Below, piece by piece: positions 407 to 59,167 of a DNA stretch of 64,000 nucleotides. The notes beneath the pieces are model-generated. The model worked only from the letters and a program-made list of their open reading frames with translations. It was not told where the DNA came from and ran no database searches. The position numbers and the translations under genes were made by a program. Every line of letters begins with the position of its first letter. Position 1 is the stretch's first letter. This DNA is from Methanothermococcus sp. Ax23 (GTDB lineage: Archaea > AGJL01 > Methanococci > Methanococcales > Methanococcaceae). The stretch covers positions 256,001-320,000 of the forward strand of contig NZ_CP157522.1 in NCBI RefSeq assembly GCF_049075655.1, in the 5' to 3' direction.

Positions 407-530
407 TGCCTCCCCCTTTATATTTTGTGTATATTTTTAAAAAGTTAAGGTATATATGAATTATTATAATTTTACTTATATAATAAGTTATATATTTAAA
501 TTTATAAATACATTTGCCTAAAATAAAAAA

Positions 531-603
531 TGCGCCAGTCGGGATTTGAACCCGAGTTACTGGCTTGGAAGGCCAGAGTGATACCAGGCTACACCACTGG
601 CGC
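531..603 (-). tRNA. tRNA-Gly(TCC)
   Basis: Reverse complement folds as a cloverleaf, GCGCCAG...CTGGCGCA, anticodon loop CTTCCAA, T-loop GTTCAAATC. Confidence 0.97.
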
Positions 604-614
604 ACATATAGTAT

Positions 615-707
615 TTGTAAAGATGCGGCCTCCGGGATTCAAACGCAACCTTTAAAAAAGGTTGCTATCCAAAGTCCAAAACTCGCTTCGCTCGTTTTGG
701 AGCCTAA
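615..707 (-). repeat. 72-bp double-hairpin element (636-707) followed by a duplicate of the tRNA-Gly(GCC) 3' end (615-639)
   Basis: 66/72 identity to 47527-47598; 615-639 matches 717-741 at 24/25 positions. Confidence 0.9.
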
Positions 708-725
708 GACCATAAGTTGTAAGGA

Positions 726-798
726 TGCGGCCTCCGGGATTTGAACCCGGGTATCGGCCGTGGCAGGGCCGTATGATACCAGGCTACATCAAGGCCGC
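726..798 (-). tRNA. tRNA-Gly(GCC)
   Basis: GCGGCCT...AGGCCGCA acceptor stem, anticodon loop CTGCCAC. Confidence 0.97.
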
Positions 799-24589: not shown

Positions 24590-24857
24590 GTTTTCCCTCT
24601 TATGATTATGATAGGTTTAGATAATATCTAATAAAAATTTGAATAGAATTCAATTTTTATACCACACAGTTTTTACTTTATACACTCTACATTAAAAATA
24701 TAATAAAAATATAAATTATGTTTTAAAAAGATTATGTTTTATTATATCTCACATTATAAAAATTATGTTATAAATTTTCAACATCGGGTAGTCTCAGATA
24801 GAGCTCAACCGAGGTTGTCGAAAAATATTAAAGCATCAATAATATATAATACATATT

Positions 24858-25886
24858 ATGAAAGGGAATTCAAAAAAGAAAAAAGAAAAGAAAAAGACCA
24901 ATACTAAGAGGAAAGAAAAATATTGGAAAGCTTACGATATTAGATATAAAAACTACGACCTAAGAACTACATATACATTAATTTTATCCATTACAAACAT
25001 GCTGAATCGTCCTTCTACTGAAGGACGAAAGGTTGGTAGGACACCAGTCCTACCACATAATGAATATGTGGTAGTTCTAATATTAAAATATATCTACAAA
25101 CTAAGTTTAAGAGATTTGGAAACGCTCTCAAATATTTTACACAACAGACATATCGACCATTCTACATACGGTAAAGCATTCAAGCGAATAGATAACTGGT
25201 GGTTATCTACCTTACTTACTTTTACATATGTAATTATAGACAATCTACTAAACCAGCCCTCCAACAAACTATATATGGCAGATTCCACAGGAGTTTCTAT
25301 AAATAGATTATATGATGAATGTATTCACCGTGGGAAACGGACTAAACGGTTAGTGCATGATAAATTGCATATATTGGCATGTCGCTTACGAAGTAAGCGA
25401 GTAATGAAATTGAAATCTATGATTTCAATTTCATCTGATTACTATCCAGAACAAGGCTATATCCCAATAGTTTCTGCTCGTTGGGGTGGTGCTTATAGTT
25501 CCGATAGTGCCAACCTATTAGAAATGGTTAAACAGATAGATTTTTTAGATAATGAATATCTATTGGCTGATGGAGGATATGATTGTTGTGAATTGTTTGA
25601 GTACTTATTACAACACAATATCACTCCAATAGTTAAAACAAAAGAATTCAAATGGAAGTATCACATTAGAAAAGTTAGAAAAACCATTAAAAGCATGTTT
25701 AATAAGGATTGGTATCGCCTTCGAGGGATAGTAGAATCCATATTTGGAGGGCTGGAGACTAAAAACAGATTAAAATTAGATGATAAGTTAGTAGATAGTA
25801 GATGTAAAAGCACTATCGCAGTAGCGATAGTGCATAACATATTAACACTAATGAGGATATTAGTATTAACATATGATACCAAATAA
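24858..25886 (+). CDS. DDE transposase with an in-frame hairpin insertion
   Basis: ADSTG, LADGGYD and R..VESIFG triad. Confidence 0.9.
   Translation: MKGNSKKKKEKKKTNTKRKEKYWKAYDIRYKNYDLRTTYTLILSITNMLNRPSTEGRKVGRTPVLPHNEYVVVLILKYIYKLSLRDLETLSNILHNRHIDHSTYGKAFKRIDNWWLSTLLTFTYVIIDNLLNQPSNKLYMADSTGVSINRLYDECIHRGKRTKRLVHDKLHILACRLRSKRVMKLKSMISISSDYYPEQGYIPIVSARWGGAYSSDSANLLEMVKQIDFLDNEYLLADGGYDCCELFEYLLQHNITPIVKTKEFKWKYHIRKVRKTIKSMFNKDWYRLRGIVESIFGGLETKNRLKLDDKLVDSRCKSTIAVAIVHNILTLMRILVLTYDTK
25382..25440. repeat. Double-hairpin repeat inserted in the transposase CDS
   Basis: tcgcttac-GAA-gtaagcga and atgaaattgaaatc-TAT-gatttcaatttcat; homologous to 58727-58780. Confidence 0.85.
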
Positions 25887-25920
25887 ATTTACTAATTCAA
25901 TTATTCGACAACCTCAGCTC

Positions 25921-25972: not shown

Positions 25973-26060
25973 GCAGGGGTTGCCAAGCCTGGCCAACGGC
26001 GCTGGACTTAAGATCCAGTCCCATAGGGGTTCGGGGGTTCAAATCCCCTCCCCTGCACCA
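25973..26060 (+). tRNA. tRNA-Leu(TAA), integration target
   Basis: GCAGGGG...CCCCTGCACCA; anticodon loop CTTAAGA; long variable arm. Confidence 0.97.
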
Positions 26061-26064
26061 TTTT
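26006..26064 (+). repeat. attL (3' part of tRNA-Leu)
   Basis: Identical to 47424-47482; begins at the anticodon loop. Confidence 0.95.
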
Positions 26065-26391: not shown

Positions 26392-29300
26392 TTACTCGCT
26401 TATGAGGAACCCTCTCCGAGGTTCCAGCAGTTCTCCAATATTTTTCAGTTTTTCAATAGTTTTTTCATATACTTCCTCTGGATACTTCAACACTTCTATA
26501 ATGTATTCCCAGAGTTCTGTTTCATTAATTCCATTTCTTGCTTTTTCAATAATCTCTTCCTCTATTGTCTTATTTTCTTCCTTGAATATTTTTATGAATC
26601 TTTCCAATAATTCATCCCTATCTATTATCTTTATTGTAGCATTCTCTCGTTTTTTCTTTAATTCTTTTGAAATGTAATTGTATATTGCAGAGAGTATATT
26701 CTTTATTTCTTCAAATTTTAATTTTATTCCACATTCTTTTTGGATTTCCATTATAATTTCTTTAATGGTTATTGTTTTATTTTTTAATCCATTTCCAAGT
26801 CCATATATTTTTTCCAACACTTTTGTCTCAAACATTTTTAAATATCCTTTTTCCATCTTACTGAGGTTCTCTTTTGCACATTTAACTATATTGTATGCTA
26901 TTTTTATTCTTTTAGTGATTGCACCCCACTTTGCTGGACTGAGCTCTGCTATCTTCATGGCAATATCTTTTTGAGTTCTGGCATCATCTCCAAGGATAAC
27001 TTCAGTAATCTTTGGGAACTCTTCATGCAGTTTGATATATTCAACGACTCTTCTTGCCATTTTTATATGCTTCACAATTAGGTATTTTTCATACTCACTG
27101 AACCTATCGTAGTTATTGTATTTTAACGCATTATTTACATCCTTAAACCTTTCATCAATAATATCTACTAACTTATTTACTTCTATCTTGTTTATCTCAG
27201 ATAGTTCCTTTCTTATTTCCAATACTTCTCCAATTTCTTCATCCATTATTTTTTCTATGGTTTTTATCTCCCACCCATGCCCTGTTGTCTCATCCAAATA
27301 TTTTTTCAATAATTCAGAGTTTGAAACAATTATTCTTTCTAATTTTCGATTTGTAAGATATGCTATTTTAGCCTCATCAACTTTATACCCTCCATCTTCT
27401 CTTTTCAAAATCTGCAACTGTTCTATTAGTTTTGTAGGTTTGAGTTCTTTTTCAATATCCAATATTTCTTTATTGTATTCTGAAACTAAATACTCTTTAA
27501 ATAATGAAAAGTCATCATTTGCCATACTTAGCATCTTTTCATATCTCAACATCTGTGATGCCTTCCCCTGTTCTGTATATATTATACAAGTGTCTCCCCC
27601 ATTTCTAACTCTTGCAAGGAACTGCCTGATAATTGTGGCTGATGAAGTTTTAAGGACTGCAACAACATCTACTTTATCCTTTATATTTAGTTGAATTGTT
27701 TCGTTTTCCCCTTCCCCATTTTTAATATTTATCCCTTCTGCAATTATTCTTGTTGCTAAAATTAAACCGTCTGGAACTCTTTCACTGTTTATTATCATCT
27801 GTGCCGCTTTATCTGTTCCAACAGTCTCCTTTGTAATTTTATAAATTTCTGAATTGAAGTTGTATAATTTAAGAATTTCTTCAATAGTATCTATATCCTT
27901 TTTTGAATCTACCAATACTATACCTTTTTTACTACCTTTGTTAAATTTCATTGTGATATATTTACAAAAATCTATAATGTTGTGGAGTCTTCCTTCTGAT
28001 TCAATTATGAAAGTATTTTTAAAGTATTCTTTTTTATCTTTAAATACTGCTTTGACAACCCTTTTGTTTTGTAGGTTTATGAGCTCAGGTGTTGCAGTTA
28101 ATAATATTGAAGCATATACTTTATTCAAATACTGTTCAATATTATTTATTTCCTTTTTCCTGAACTCTTTTTGTAAGATTAAATTGTGAGCCTCATCTAC
28201 TATCAATATAATGTCTTTATCTTCTTTTAGTTGTATTTCTTCTTTTCTCTCACCTATATCGATTACATCATACTTTATATCATACATTATCCTATCCAAT
28301 TGGTTATATGTTCCTATTACTAACCTTATTTCTTTTGCATTGTGAATTCTTGTAGTGCTACCTTCATAATATGCCGCCACTTTTGTTCCTTGGGATGCTA
28401 ATGTATTGTATGTCTGCATCACTTGTGATTTATAAGGGAATAGTAAGACAGTAATTTTCCCATTATTTTCTTCGTAGATTTTTCCTATGTTATTTGTTAT
28501 TGTGTATGTTTTCCCCCTTCCAGTTTCTGCCTGTAATATCACTGGTTTATTTTCTTTTGCAGAGTTGTCTATTGCTGTTTGTAGAACCTCGTATTTCAAA
28601 TACTTTTCACATTCAACTATTACTGCATTTTTATTCTTATCCAGTAATTCTTTTAAATATTCCTCCGCCTCAACATAATCATCCACTTTTGATGAAATTC
28701 CCTTCTTTTCAATAAATTCTAATATTTTATCTTTATATGCTCCCCATAGATATGCAATAACATTTGTTCTCAAATTATTGTTATGCCAATCTACTGCTAT
28801 GGCATTATATCCTTTATTTGGATATATGGTGCAATCTGGGTTATTTCCATCATTATAGTATATTGAATAGATGCTGATGTATTTACCATTTGATTTATAT
28901 CCCACTCTTAAATAGTCAAATAATTCTATAATCCACTTACTATCTTTGTATATTTCAGTTAATTTTGCCTGTATGAATTTCGTAAATTTGTATTCTTTTT
29001 TTGTTAATTCTTTAAAATCTTTAATTTTTATGTTTGATTTTTTGAGTTTATTGATTAGTTCAAATGATTCCGTTGTTTCACTTGCTTCTTTTACCATTTC
29101 TTTATATTCTTCATTATTTATTCCGAATTTGTAGAAAAATACTTCTGGAGCTATTGGTGCTAGATTTTTTCTTACATATAATATTTTACAGTCTCTCCCT
29201 CCCTCATATTTTTCTTTTCTGTTTTTTGTTCCAGGAAGTCTATCTACTCTTGCAATATCGTACATTGCAGTGTCTGCATCATGTCCAATTTGTTCTGCAA

Positions 29301-29952
29301 TTTTGGAAAGTATTGGGAGTTCTAACCTTGATATTGGTCTATCAATGTAATAGATGAACCTCAAACCCCCTCCGGTGAATGCAATAATGTGTGGTGTTGT
29401 GTAATCATCAGGGAGCTCTGAAAGTATTTTGTTTATTTTGTCATTTATCTCATCCATGGTAGGTTCTTTTTCTTTCCACTCCTCAACATCAAAATCAATA
29501 GGTATATAAATCCATGCTGTGGCTGATTTTGAACTCCCATTTTCCGTCTGTCTTGGTGCTATCCCTATTGATACAGTTGTTAATCTTGCTCTTTTACCTA
29601 TCTTTTTTAAAATTTCATTTTCTTTTTCGTAAATTCTGTTTGAAATTGATTCAGCAATGTTTTTTATGTCATCTGGATTAATCTCTGGGATTTCTATATA
29701 TTCAGAATATGCCCAGGAGTTTCTGTTATTTGGTTTTTGGTATTTCTTTTCCAATTCAACCAAATACCTAACTTCAAAATAGTTCATGTGTTTTATTGAT
29801 TTTTTTATATCCTTTTTGAGTTCTGGAATCGTTCCATCAACTACACTCCATACTATTTTATTTCTAAAATTGTAAATTGATGCCAGTAAAATACTTATAT
29901 GTTTAGTTATTTGTTTATTATTTGGCAAATTATATGAAGTGTATTTTTCCAT
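26392..29952 (-). CDS. Replication protein: RepB'/AEP-like primase domain fused to an SF2 helicase
   Basis: IDFD, FTGGGLRFIY and D.ARVDRLPGT.N.K; AETGRGKT, DEAH, LTAT, T..IAEGINI and QFLARVR. Confidence 0.8.
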   Translation of the reverse strand: MEKYTSYNLPNNKQITKHISILLASIYNFRNKIVWSVVDGTIPELKKDIKKSIKHMNYFEVRYLVELEKKYQKPNNRNSWAYSEYIEIPEINPDDIKNIAESISNRIYEKENEILKKIGKRARLTTVSIGIAPRQTENGSSKSATAWIYIPIDFDVEEWKEKEPTMDEINDKINKILSELPDDYTTPHIIAFTGGGLRFIYYIDRPISRLELPILSKIAEQIGHDADTAMYDIARVDRLPGTKNRKEKYEGGRDCKILYVRKNLAPIAPEVFFYKFGINNEEYKEMVKEASETTESFELINKLKKSNIKIKDFKELTKKEYKFTKFIQAKLTEIYKDSKWIIELFDYLRVGYKSNGKYISIYSIYYNDGNNPDCTIYPNKGYNAIAVDWHNNNLRTNVIAYLWGAYKDKILEFIEKKGISSKVDDYVEAEEYLKELLDKNKNAVIVECEKYLKYEVLQTAIDNSAKENKPVILQAETGRGKTYTITNNIGKIYEENNGKITVLLFPYKSQVMQTYNTLASQGTKVAAYYEGSTTRIHNAKEIRLVIGTYNQLDRIMYDIKYDVIDIGERKEEIQLKEDKDIILIVDEAHNLILQKEFRKKEINNIEQYLNKVYASILLTATPELINLQNKRVVKAVFKDKKEYFKNTFIIESEGRLHNIIDFCKYITMKFNKGSKKGIVLVDSKKDIDTIEEILKLYNFNSEIYKITKETVGTDKAAQMIINSERVPDGLILATRIIAEGINIKNGEGENETIQLNIKDKVDVVAVLKTSSATIIRQFLARVRNGGDTCIIYTEQGKASQMLRYEKMLSMANDDFSLFKEYLVSEYNKEILDIEKELKPTKLIEQLQILKREDGGYKVDEAKIAYLTNRKLERIIVSNSELLKKYLDETTGHGWEIKTIEKIMDEEIGEVLEIRKELSEINKIEVNKLVDIIDERFKDVNNALKYNNYDRFSEYEKYLIVKHIKMARRVVEYIKLHEEFPKITEVILGDDARTQKDIAMKIAELSPAKWGAITKRIKIAYNIVKCAKENLSKMEKGYLKMFETKVLEKIYGLGNGLKNKTITIKEIIMEIQKECGIKLKFEEIKNILSAIYNYISKELKKKRENATIKIIDRDELLERFIKIFKEENKTIEEEIIEKARNGINETELWEYIIEVLKYPEEVYEKTIEKLKNIGELLEPRRGFLISE

Positions 29953-29964
29953 AATCTCCCCATT

Positions 29965-30927
29965 TTATAAATTTCTTCTAATTGTGTTTAGTAAAATATC
30001 TGTTCGCTCTTTACTATGTGCGTAGAATAATGTTGTTTCTAATGAACTATGTCCCAAGTATTCTTTTACAATTTCAATTGGAACACCATTGTTCAGTAGT
30101 TCAACTGCCCTACCATGTCGTAGGGAATGAACAACTATTCTTTTATTTTTTGGAATCTCTCCCTCTTTCTTTAATTCATTCACGGCTCTTCTGAACATCT
30201 CACTAACCCAACCTCTTCTTACTTTCCCTCCTTTATCGTTCTGGAATATTGGGTCTTTGTCCTCTGTTTTTATGTTATATTTCACATATTCTCTTAATGC
30301 CATTAGTGTGTCCTTAGAACACACTACAAATCTTTCTTCACTAGATTTTGTATTTTTAATTCTGAACCTCCCCTCTTCAAAGTCGCAGTCTTCATAAGTT
30401 AAATTTATAATTTCTGAAATTCTGCATCCTGTGTCCCACAACATTCTGATAATTAAGGCATCTCTCATATTTGTTCTTCCCCTTCTTTGTAGAATCTTTT
30501 TTAATATTTTGTTCAATGTTTTCGAATTTACTGCATCATAGTGCTTTACTTCAAACTTTGTATATCTTCTTCTTTCTCTGCATTCCATTTCAAATTCCTT
30601 GAAATTTTCCAATCTCATAAGTCTATAAAACACTTTTAATAGTTTGAAATACTGACCTACTGAATTTCCCAATTTTCTTTCGTTTTCCAAATATTTGAAG
30701 AATTTACTGAATTCCTGTTTATTTAATTGGTCTGGTTCTTTGTTTATCCTCTCATAGCAGTATGAGAGAAAAACTCTGAGCCTTGATATATCACTTTTTA
30801 TTGTTGTCTCTTTTATTCTGTCAAATTCCCTTTCTTCTCTGAACTTCTCTATCCATTTGTCTTGGTTTGATAGTTCTACCTTTTTTTTATCAGGATTGAT
30901 AAGAATTAGATTTTCAATATCCTTCAT
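29965..30927 (-). CDS. Tyrosine integrase (MJ0367-like)
   Basis: TGCRISE, HSLRH and LGH...T..Y; N-terminal core-binding domain present. Confidence 0.93.
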   Translation of the reverse strand: MKDIENLILINPDKKKVELSNQDKWIEKFREEREFDRIKETTIKSDISRLRVFLSYCYERINKEPDQLNKQEFSKFFKYLENERKLGNSVGQYFKLLKVFYRLMRLENFKEFEMECRERRRYTKFEVKHYDAVNSKTLNKILKKILQRRGRTNMRDALIIRMLWDTGCRISEIINLTYEDCDFEEGRFRIKNTKSSEERFVVCSKDTLMALREYVKYNIKTEDKDPIFQNDKGGKVRRGWVSEMFRRAVNELKKEGEIPKNKRIVVHSLRHGRAVELLNNGVPIEIVKEYLGHSSLETTLFYAHSKERTDILLNTIRRNL

Positions 30928-58677: not shown

Positions 58678-58694
58678 AAAAACACCATTTTATC

Positions 58695-59103
58695 TGACCT
58701 ACTCCAACGAGTGAACTCGTTGGGTTCTCGCTTACGGTAGTAAGCGAGCAACGAAATCACGAAGTGATTTCGTCTAATTTTAGCAGGGTTTAACCCTACA
58801 TGGGTGGCCAAGCCCACTACCCCTATCTCCGTTTAGGAGATTCAGGGCTACGCTGTATCACTAAGATTACTCTATCAAAACAAACCACGATACCAACCAC
58901 TACCAGCGGTAGAGTTTTCACTAACCCTACCCATTAGAACTTGGACTGGTAGCGTTACTTACTATTAATCTTCACATATTTATATTTTACTACTTACTAG
59001 CCGATATAATGTCCGCCTCTCATCCAATCTCATAAGAGATTTTACAAAACTATGTTTTGTATAACGATTAAAATCGTTGGCTTTCTCGGCGGTTTATCGT
59101 AAA
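58695..59103. mobile_element. Non-coding structured element, probably a non-autonomous IS200/IS605 derivative with nested hairpin repeats
   Basis: GC-rich ORF-free intergenic tract with many hairpins; end cgcctctcatccaatctc-ataa-gagatt[..]ggctttctcggc resembles IS200/IS605 subterminal hairpins. Confidence 0.55.
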
Positions 59104-59167
59104 AAATAAAACAAAAAAAGATTTTTATAATTATTTTATATTATATGTTAAAAAATAAAAATTTAAA

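Follow-up and report, generated by a model that had tools for sequence, protein, structure and literature searches.

What is a short double hairpin doing behind two different tRNA genes of one archaeon, each time followed by a second copy of that tRNA's tail? The question is raised by a stretch of 64,000 nucleotides from Methanothermococcus sp. Ax23 (NCBI RefSeq assembly GCF_049075655.1, contig NZ_CP157522.1, positions 256,001 to 320,000 of the forward strand), in which an earlier note, made from the sequence alone, had marked two copies of a 72-bp unit. The whole stretch is called the window here and is numbered from its first letter; its own genome (1.67 Mb) is designated G000, and the other G numbers are Methanococcales relatives. 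Comparison within G000 and across the order suggests that the unit belongs to an old, non-autonomous family of mobile DNA distributed across the Methanococcales, whose members would enter their sites between staggered single-strand openings that are then filled in, with the help of a factor acting in trans; to this explanation as a whole we give a probability of about 0.68.

The two units, at 636-707 on the minus strand and 47527-47598 on the plus strand, are identical at 66 of 72 positions. The six differences fall at positions 6, 17, 23, 40, 46 and 60 of the 72-mer and include two compensatory pairs, 17/23 (GC-GAA-GC against AC-GAA-GT) and 46/60 (GCAACC..GGTTGC against GCATCC..GGATGC), as had been described from the sequence and is borne out by our comparison. 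Both units lie just behind a tRNA 3' end in the orientation of that tRNA, a second claim that held (ARAGORN prediction for the first copy, a tRNA-Leu attR copy for the second), and both run on into GTTTGAATC, the cognate acceptor 3' strand and flank. Read along the minus strand, copy 1 consists of tRNA-Gly(GCC), 16-18 nt of flank, a unit of 62-63 nt at 707-645, and then GTTTGAATCCCGGAGGCCGCA and flank (644-605), which is a second copy of the tRNA from the T-loop to beyond its 3' end. The second unit sits behind an attR-type copy of the tRNA-Leu 3' part, because the last 62 bp of tRNA-Leu(TAA) (26003-26064) recur at 47421-47482 (61 of 62 positions); on its distal side follow GTTTG, AATC, a decayed acceptor strand and a well-preserved flank. 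The earlier note had taken each unit to end in a T-loop-like sequence, followed by a duplicate of the tRNA tail. The cognate tail copy stands, and the fixed end does not: GTTTGAATC is the start of the duplicated target (tRNA GTTCA/GAATC with positions 4-5 changed), and it is absent at sites other than tRNA genes. The features concerned are as follows (DR1, proximal duplication; DR2, distal duplication).

726..798, minus strand: tRNA-Gly(GCC), intact target of copy 1 (ARAGORN; Rfam tRNA, 60.4 bits)
708..746, minus strand: DR1 of copy 1, starting at T-loop G53 (746), passing the tRNA 3' end (726) and continuing over 16-18 nt of flank as far as the head (sequence; single in the empty sites of G012, G004 and G005)
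645..707, minus strand: element core of copy 1, with head TTAGG, hairpin 1, linker and hairpin 2 ending in GC at 645 (covariance model 645-706, 86.7 bits; DNA fold; not at the orthologous site in G012, G004 and G005)
605..644, minus strand: DR2 of copy 1, with GTTTG for GTTCA, then AATCCCGGAGGCCGCA and flank, up to the next tRNA gene (sequence, alignment)
47421..47482, plus strand: attR-type repeat of the final 62 bp of tRNA-Leu(TAA), left behind by a 21-kb integrated element and standing in for the tRNA of copy 2 (61/62 to 26003-26064)
47455..47526, plus strand: DR1 of copy 2, with T-loop GTTCA, tRNA-Leu 3' end and ~50 bp of flank (~70-bp repeat)
47527..47589, plus strand: element core of copy 2 (covariance model 47528-47589, 86.4 bits; DNA fold)
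47590..47665, plus strand: DR2 of copy 2, with GTTTG, AATC, decayed acceptor strand and well-preserved flank (sequence)
530..604, minus strand: tRNA-Gly(TCC), the neighbour bounding DR2 of copy 1, which in G012 carries an element with its own tail duplication (ARAGORN; alignment)
25973..26060, plus strand: tRNA-Leu(TAA), intact, its 3' part repeated at 47421-47482 (ARAGORN; repeat comparison)

The element itself has a core of ~62 bp, made up of a head, (T)TAGGTTCC, a variable hairpin 1 (apex GAA, GATA or CGAAG, depending on the copy, where the earlier note had pointed to d(GCGAAGC) as an exceptionally stable mini-hairpin), a linker and a conserved hairpin 2, GCAACC-TTTTTTAAA-GGTTGC, with a run of six T (T6) in its loop. 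Inverted termini are weak, matching by reading at best at ~8 of 10 positions when the changed T-loop is counted. Variants contain one or two additional small hairpins, either between the main hairpins or in the loop of hairpin 2. In the copies at tRNA-Ile and tRNA-Thr (G000:C1:426560-426691 and 1316699-1316826) a second hairpin module of ~50 bp (CGAGCGATAGCGAG..., a short hairpin and a T run) sits exactly in the hairpin 2 loop, and related modules are found between hairpins 1 and 2 at 1259634-1259757 of G000 as well as in G012 and G003; hairpin elements nest within one another at fixed points.

Searches of G000 returned 29 matches, both by BLAST with the 72-mer and with an nhmmer profile built from eight copies, the latter corresponding to ~19 loci at E<0.01, one of which is a tandem array of seven units. 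Copies at unrelated loci are 85-97% identical (BLAST), and the same element boundaries, with ~62 bp between the repeats, recur at 19 loci. Relatives of the 72-mer were detected in 9 of 41 genomes. A covariance model (R1, built on 15 copies) searched over 40 genomes of the order gave matches in at least 21, namely G000, 8 of the 22 genomes of its family and 12 of the 17 of the other family; at most 136 candidates per genome were scored with the model, and counts per genome are therefore lower bounds. Within the window's genus, 3 of 12 other genomes contained copies and the complete genomes G004 and G005 had none, and the distribution is patchy within each genus. Copies in G026, G031, G013 and G017 are flanked by repeats as well, of up to 99-101 bp, and the at least seven model matches in G031 are double hairpins with flanking repeats. 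In the seven-unit array (G000:C1:869122-869931), whose period is 112 bp, each unit is the same [47-bp target repeat + element]; the array lies at the end of a 476-aa open reading frame (ORF) whose stop codon is the TAG of the element, and it closes with a diverged head. Comparable arrays were found in G012 (three units behind tRNA-Ser and two at the site n1600) and G010 (two units behind tRNA-Ile). An exact 21-base motif from hairpin 2 was also found on three IMG/VR contigs, in generic hairpins, AT-rich and terminator-like, that lack both hairpin 1 and the head and have unrelated repeats around them; these are not homologous to the element. Across a genome contig collection the same motif matched four contigs of one Methanothermococcus metagenome-assembled genome; that scan overlooked G017, which has the exact motif, and no claim about distribution is therefore drawn from it.

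Folding as DNA gave two hairpins on both strands (−15.5 and −14.4 kcal/mol; z scores −4.6 and −5.2; equalled by 0 of 200 shuffles), and folding energy is no guide to the choice of strand, as the two fold equally well. In an alignment of 87 model matches (71 distinct), 96.7% of cells were paired, compared with 72.4% in shuffles (0 of 500 reached the observed value), a comparison that leans towards structure since the alignment was fitted to the covariance model. All 18 pairs showed changes on both sides, and sliding the partner columns by one to three reduced pairing to 36-54%. Together the alignments indicate that structure, not sequence, is conserved. G-U type cells numbered 11 of 1183 (counted by hand), leaving the stems almost purely Watson-Crick, and pairing of that kind on both strands points to DNA hairpins or cruciforms over RNA. 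An Rfam scan of six loci (E up to 1) returned only tRNA genes above threshold and nothing on the unit.

Where the element lands was assessed against the 39 tRNA genes that ARAGORN predicts in G000. Eight of them (Gly-GCC, Arg-TCG, Arg-TCT, Pro-GGG, Val-GAC, Ile-GAT, Thr-GGT and, via the attR copy, Leu-TAA) have a copy within 50 bp downstream, in all eight cases in the orientation of the tRNA. The binomial probability of at least 8 of 19 loci falling at tRNAs is ~1 × 10−21, and the association with tRNAs, for which the earlier note had proposed a test, is therefore more than chance. The remaining loci of G000, about half, lie away from tRNAs behind protein genes and show the same long duplications. 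At 7 of the 11 non-tRNA loci an ORF in the same orientation ends between −20 and +2 bp from the head, and some of these ORFs stop at the element's TAG; two others adjoin the 5' end of a gene on the opposite strand. Scatter away from tRNAs, which the earlier note would have taken as speaking against its proposal, is thus partly there, yet tRNA enrichment is strong.

At tRNA sites the distal repeat starts at T-loop position 53 (GTTC...) in 13 isoacceptors from five genomes, including G031 of the other family, and insertion at the T-loop of unrelated tRNAs to that extent holds. By reading, GTKSRAA begins 5 of 19 independent non-tRNA targets, against a genome frequency of 7.9 × 10−4 per position (P ~1 × 10−9 to 1 × 10−12). 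No sequence is common to the joints of proximal repeat and head, which fall near gene ends. The target would accordingly be a short motif close to GTKSRAA, of which the T-loop seems to be the best example and the one most often repeated; tRNA 3' ends would be hot spots because no form of the motif is commoner than GTTCRAAT, the coding sequence of the T-loop. With about half of the loci behind protein genes, the tRNA would then be a preferred instance of the motif and not the target as such, and it is here that the proposal of an element inserting at tRNAs is too narrow.

Two observations concern the surroundings of these sites. Directly behind eight different tRNAs or duplicated tails in G000 lies a ~40-bp motif (TTTTTATTTTAGG... 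ATATTT.TTAATTT; in the window at 505-529, 47479-47520 and 47614-47650), whose 13-base core has 17 matches genome-wide, 11 of them behind tRNAs or tails; the motif is also present behind a tRNA tail in G031. It includes TTTTAGG, which resembles the element head, and may be a shared terminator and promoter region. A degenerate element at G000:C1:371689-371775, with no tRNA close by, runs on into GTTTGAATC and then into a stretch that differs at two positions from the tail of tRNA-Met(CAT), a gene 140 kb away; this is either a relic shifted by rearrangement or an element that took its distal repeat along.

The flanking duplications were measured by local alignment of the 220 nt before the head with the 140 nt past hairpin 2, in 52 copies comprising those of G000 and the loci examined in relatives. 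An abutting direct repeat (score ≥40) was found at 38 of the 52, compared with 1 of 1500 random positions of G000. Repeat lengths range from 22 to 140 bp, a six-fold spread, and are mostly 40-70 bp. The 14 copies that did not score include the two Gly-GCC copies, where the aligner took the similarity of the neighbouring tRNA-Gly genes instead. At locus n46 the distal repeat is present and is split from the element by a 2-kb TnpB insertion sequence (IS). As it is the last 22-140 bp of the target that are duplicated, insertion leaves the gene intact, be it a tRNA or an ORF, whose stop codon is included. In G000 no tRNA-tail duplication occurs without a hairpin unit, apart from the integrase attachment (att) repeat and a tandem Asp-Lys duplication, and the pattern that was to count against the proposal is therefore not seen. 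The latter is a pair of tRNA-Asp and tRNA-Lys genes duplicated in tandem with a period of 332 bp (G000:C1:525334-525964), which is not linked to the hairpin element.

Parts of tRNA 3' ends are also the classic att sites of integrases, and the window itself contains a 21-kb element with a tyrosine integrase (29965-30927) and 62-bp tRNA-Leu repeats. The units could accordingly be imagined as remnants or miniatures of integrase-borne elements, their repeats being att sites in tRNA genes. We find this barely credible, since about half of the loci lie at protein genes and repeat local sequence, each repeat is cognate to its own site and could not have been brought by an incoming circle, ~62 bp alone stand between the repeats with the same boundaries at 19 loci, and repeat lengths vary from 22 to 140 bp. 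The likeness to tRNA-targeting tyrosine-integrase elements, such as that of the window, is that tRNA 3' repeats flank the insert and the tRNA remains intact; the difference is that those elements carry their att in and use one tRNA, whereas at the hairpin element 13 isoacceptors, as well as ORFs, duplicate their own sequence, and it has no integrase gene. The earlier note's view of a downstream duplication of variable length, unlike integrase att sites or target duplications of fixed length, is upheld by the cognate repeats of 22-140 bp. The integrated element of the window is itself 21.4 kb long (26065-47420, between the repeats 26003-26064 and 47421-47482). Besides the tyrosine integrase it encodes a 1186-aa ResIII/DEAD helicase (26392-29952), a HerA/FtsK-like ATPase and, at 42635-44665, a protein in which all three T26-6p domains are present, and we take the element to fit the pT26-2 plasmid family. 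Just upstream of tRNA-Leu lies an IS4-like element (24811-25915; ORF 24858-25886, a 342-aa DDE_Tnp_1 protein), with six copies in the genome at 86-94% identity.

Empty sites, which the earlier note had proposed to look for, were found in relatives. At the Gly-GCC site, G000 and G003 have the element and two tail copies; the site is empty, with one tail copy, in G012, G004 and G005 (by alignment) and in G010 (by coordinates); G012 has an element behind the neighbouring tRNA-Gly(TCC) instead, followed by the tail of that tRNA. At the protein gene n1651, the element is present in G000 and G012 together with a duplication of 67 bp, which takes in the stop codon and ends just beyond it, and G008, G007 and G002 are empty, with a single copy and no element. 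Three different copies, differing in hairpin sequence and repeat length, are present at tRNA-Met(CAT) in G012, G003 and G013, and there is none in G000. Site n1600 showed a break of synteny in three relatives. These comparisons indicate that the duplications are made on insertion, the direction being given by parsimony.

The same comparisons bear on whether the unit moves at all. It might instead be a static cis-acting element, for example a terminator, with its repeats arising by local slippage: it stands in sense orientation behind eight tRNA genes and seven ORFs, hairpin 2 carries the T6 run, and tandem arrays exist. As the sole explanation this is excluded by the empty sites, and as a rival it is very improbable, given that sister species differ in presence and absence at orthologous sites, that copies at unrelated loci are 85-97% identical, that the same tRNA-Met carries different copies in three species, and that the distribution is patchy within each genus. 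The T6 run and the sense orientation do make a role as terminator likely after insertion, which is compatible with mobility.

The distal copy of the target differs from the proximal one in a characteristic way. After hairpin 2, identity between the two is 0.965 at positions 1-3, falls to 0.68 at position 4 and 0.50 at position 5, and is 0.87-1.0 thereafter. Mismatches were found at 71 of 286 sites in positions 1-8, compared with 116 of 1604 further in (Fisher P = 3 × 10−16, a value that overstates the case since the loci are related). They are directional, with A>G in 29 and C>T in 17 of the 71; further in, A>G accounts for 10 of 116. GTTCA or GTTCG almost always becomes GTTTG in the tRNA copies, with the exceptions of the G012 array, which keeps GTTCA, and of G010 and G013 copies with an extra T; the same change at positions 4-5 is also seen at non-tRNA sites. 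Young repeats that are perfect in all else, the seven-copy array among them, show these differences and no others, and the changes therefore arose at or near insertion. They may represent a five-base tail belonging to the element, error-prone synthesis where its 3' end acts as primer, or selection against keeping the target motif intact beside the element.

The preferred explanation can then be set out as a series of steps. The element inserts just behind a gene with its head facing that gene; one strand would be opened at a GTKSRAA-like motif and the other, loosely, 22-140 bp downstream near the gene end; the element would be joined between the two openings, and both single-stranded stretches of target would be filled in. 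The anatomy of target, element and target fits paired staggered single-strand openings with fill-in. The intermediate would probably be DNA rather than RNA, and a dedicated trans-acting factor would read the two hairpins as DNA structure.

Several points weigh against this explanation. No enzyme or autonomous version was found for the family, and the longer, gene-carrying form of the element that the earlier note had suggested looking for was not seen. The ends of the two TnpB families of G000 proved unlike the element on inspection, and the nhmmer matches of the unit coincide with no IS ends (the IS4-, IS5- and ISC1217-like families were not aligned singly). The ISC1217-like transposase (PF04693) was considered as the driver and rejected, as it occurs in 10 of 40 genomes and is absent from the copy-rich G012 and G003. 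To our knowledge no transposase makes target duplications that vary from 22 to 140 bp. Twelve of the 52 copies fall below the repeat threshold (four score 33-39, and several G017 copies have no repeat), and the explanation does not account for the directional change at positions 4-5. In G003 the n155 site is without the distal repeat and without most of the element, and it retains ~22 nt resembling the head, which a simple model of gain would not predict. Recombination between the repeats could also remove an element precisely, so that the direction of gain rests on parsimony across few genomes, and position and orientation at gene ends may come from selection and not from the mechanism.

The search for an enzyme in G000 covered several families. 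Y1 HUH transposases (PF01797) gave 0 matches there, with the control positive in 6 of 14 known genomes. Among the repeats of G000, five families have transposase-like ORFs, two of them TnpB, the others IS4-like, IS5-like and ISC1217-like. A tally of TnpB against the element over 40 genomes gave both in 17, the element only in 4, TnpB only in 5 and neither in 14, the genomes being kin and not independent; TnpB follows the element loosely, and both may just mark genomes tolerant of mobile DNA. Two TnpB-type insertions lie directly at element ends. One is the 2-kb insertion sequence at n46 (G000:C1:46587-48700; second copy at 1510565-1512578), which starts 9 bp past hairpin 2 and parts the element from its distal repeat; together with the end of the seven-unit array, this makes two cases of landing of the IS200/IS605 type at the 3' side of the element. 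Behind that array stands a copy of a ~305-410-bp repeat, opening with the left end of TnpB family A (TTACGATAA...); another copy is found in the window at 58691-59105 (G000:C1:314691-315105), and the genome holds ~18. The repeat is probably a short non-autonomous derivative of the TnpB family A IS. A second contig of 7.7 kb was rejected as a source of an enzyme, as it has a large helicase-like protein, no recombinase by Pfam and no link to the element. This contig (C2, 7732 bp) codes for one helicase-like protein of very large size, extending over the contig ends (weak DEAD/ResIII matches), and for a few small ORFs without a family; a large ResIII/DEAD helicase is also encoded by the integrated element of the window.

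That no transposase candidate was found leaves room for routes without a dedicated enzyme. Host replication or repair might join a free or nascent element strand to the target, either by annealing of the 3' end past hairpin 2 to a GTKSRAA or T-loop sequence, from which it primes, or by a polymerase that switches template twice, and the length of the duplication would be set by wherever the other joint falls. The broad range of 22-140 bp, with no ruler, agrees with this, as do the 29 A>G and 17 C>T among 71 mismatches, the pattern expected of G-T mispairs where synthesis starts with low fidelity. At n1472, moreover, the 12 nt past DR2 equal the element's own head, and the n155 site of G003 is head-like, so that some left joints lie in short homology. 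We consider such a route rather unlikely nonetheless: most left joints are without homology, head and hairpin 2 end are sharp in nearly all copies, which random template switching would not produce, tRNA copies change identically (CA/CG to TG) instead of at scattered positions, and the route would need a source of free element DNA. In a related proposal, the element spreads by target-primed insertion at the DNA level, with no transposase or reverse transcriptase of a known type: the 3' end held by hairpin 2 would pair with a T-loop-like motif and prime copying of the target. A long, variable duplication and a directional A-to-G and C-to-T patch in the first copied bases would both follow from such priming, and tRNA genes would be targeted because the T-loop is the most repeated instance of the motif in any genome. 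As a variant, the element and the start of the distal repeat might serve as a guide for one of the many co-occurring TnpB nucleases. This proposal, its variant included, is unlikely.

An RNA route, resembling that of short interspersed elements (SINEs), would have a reverse transcriptase copy the element RNA and, by a template jump, the 3' part of a gene transcript. Target-primed reverse transcription has as its hallmark target duplications of variable length, which the element shares with SINEs and non-LTR retrotransposons, together with one joint defined by sequence and another that is loose; the left joint, too, lies close to transcript 3' ends. Archaeal tRNA T-loops carry the modifications m1A58, m1I57 and Cm56, and modified bases would give a fixed stop and an A-to-G reading, consistent with A57 being read as G in the majority of tRNA copies. 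Non-tRNA sites, for whose transcripts no modification is to be expected, show the same change at positions 4-5, however, and the distal copy contains the unprocessed 3' trailer. RVT_1 (PF00078, the sole reverse transcriptase family searched) was present in 1 of 41 genomes (G013) and not in the copy-rich G003, G012 and G017 or in G000. Unlike SINEs, the element has no A-tail and a DNA-like structure, with 11 of 1183 cells of G-U type, and no Rfam family matches it. An RNA route is for these reasons quite improbable.

Staggered opening with fill-in, aided by a factor in trans, remains the explanation that we prefer. The element differs from known systems in several respects. Classical MITEs, small transposable elements with inverted repeats, share their ends with resident IS. 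The hairpin element is like them in being small, multicopy (~19 loci), non-coding, structured, polymorphic in presence and absence, and flanked by target duplications. It is unlike them in that its duplications vary from 22 to 140 bp, its inverted termini are weak, and no resident IS with shared ends was found. According to a review (PMC11602168), the terminal inverted repeats of MITEs measure 10-15 bp or more, and the duplications are of fixed size, 2-10 bp. With derivatives of IS200/IS605 (PATEs) and with REP/REPIN sequences and their RAYT the element has in common compensatory subterminal hairpins with Watson-Crick stems, a position at gene ends and co-occurrence with TnpB. IS200/IS605 derivatives and REPINs make no target duplication and need a Y1 HUH enzyme, whereas the element shows duplications at 38 of 52 copies, G000 has no PF01797, and the ends of the TnpB families differ. 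Some casposons integrate at tRNA 3' ends, and integration of CRISPR spacers duplicates the ~30-bp repeat; these duplications are fixed and set by a ruler, at 14-15 bp or one repeat. Arrays of the form [repeat-element]n are superficially CRISPR-like, but the duplication length of the element varies six-fold.

Closest in kind are MJRE1-3, palindromic repeats of Methanocaldococcus jannaschii reportedly described by Suyama, Lathe and Bork in FEBS Lett in 2005. Like the element, they are short, non-coding and palindromic and occur in a member of the same order, in part beside or inside genes; the abstract is not known to mention a tRNA T-loop target, long duplications or empty sites, the comparison being one of descriptions. 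Small hairpin repeats of Methanococcales are said to have been listed since 2005 and treated as passive. No description of T-loop-targeting hairpin elements or of long variable duplications in Methanococcales was found in literature searches or in passages of PMC2229807, PMC11602168, PMC10969869 and PMC3733652, and a prior one is possible.

The family thus gains a defined behaviour: landing at the T-loop in at least 13 tRNAs, a 3' duplication that spares the gene, and duplication lengths outside the rulers of known transposases. The system is open to experiment, as sister species differ at orthologous sites and several members of the order can be cultured, some with genetic tools. For genome annotation it means that duplicated tRNA tails could be misread as the att sites that belong to integrated elements. 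The chance of a new kind of mechanism is modest; if the mechanism is new, it would represent a cost-free insertion route for mobile DNA in compact genomes and would explain the duplicated gene 3' ends and tRNA tails of these archaea.

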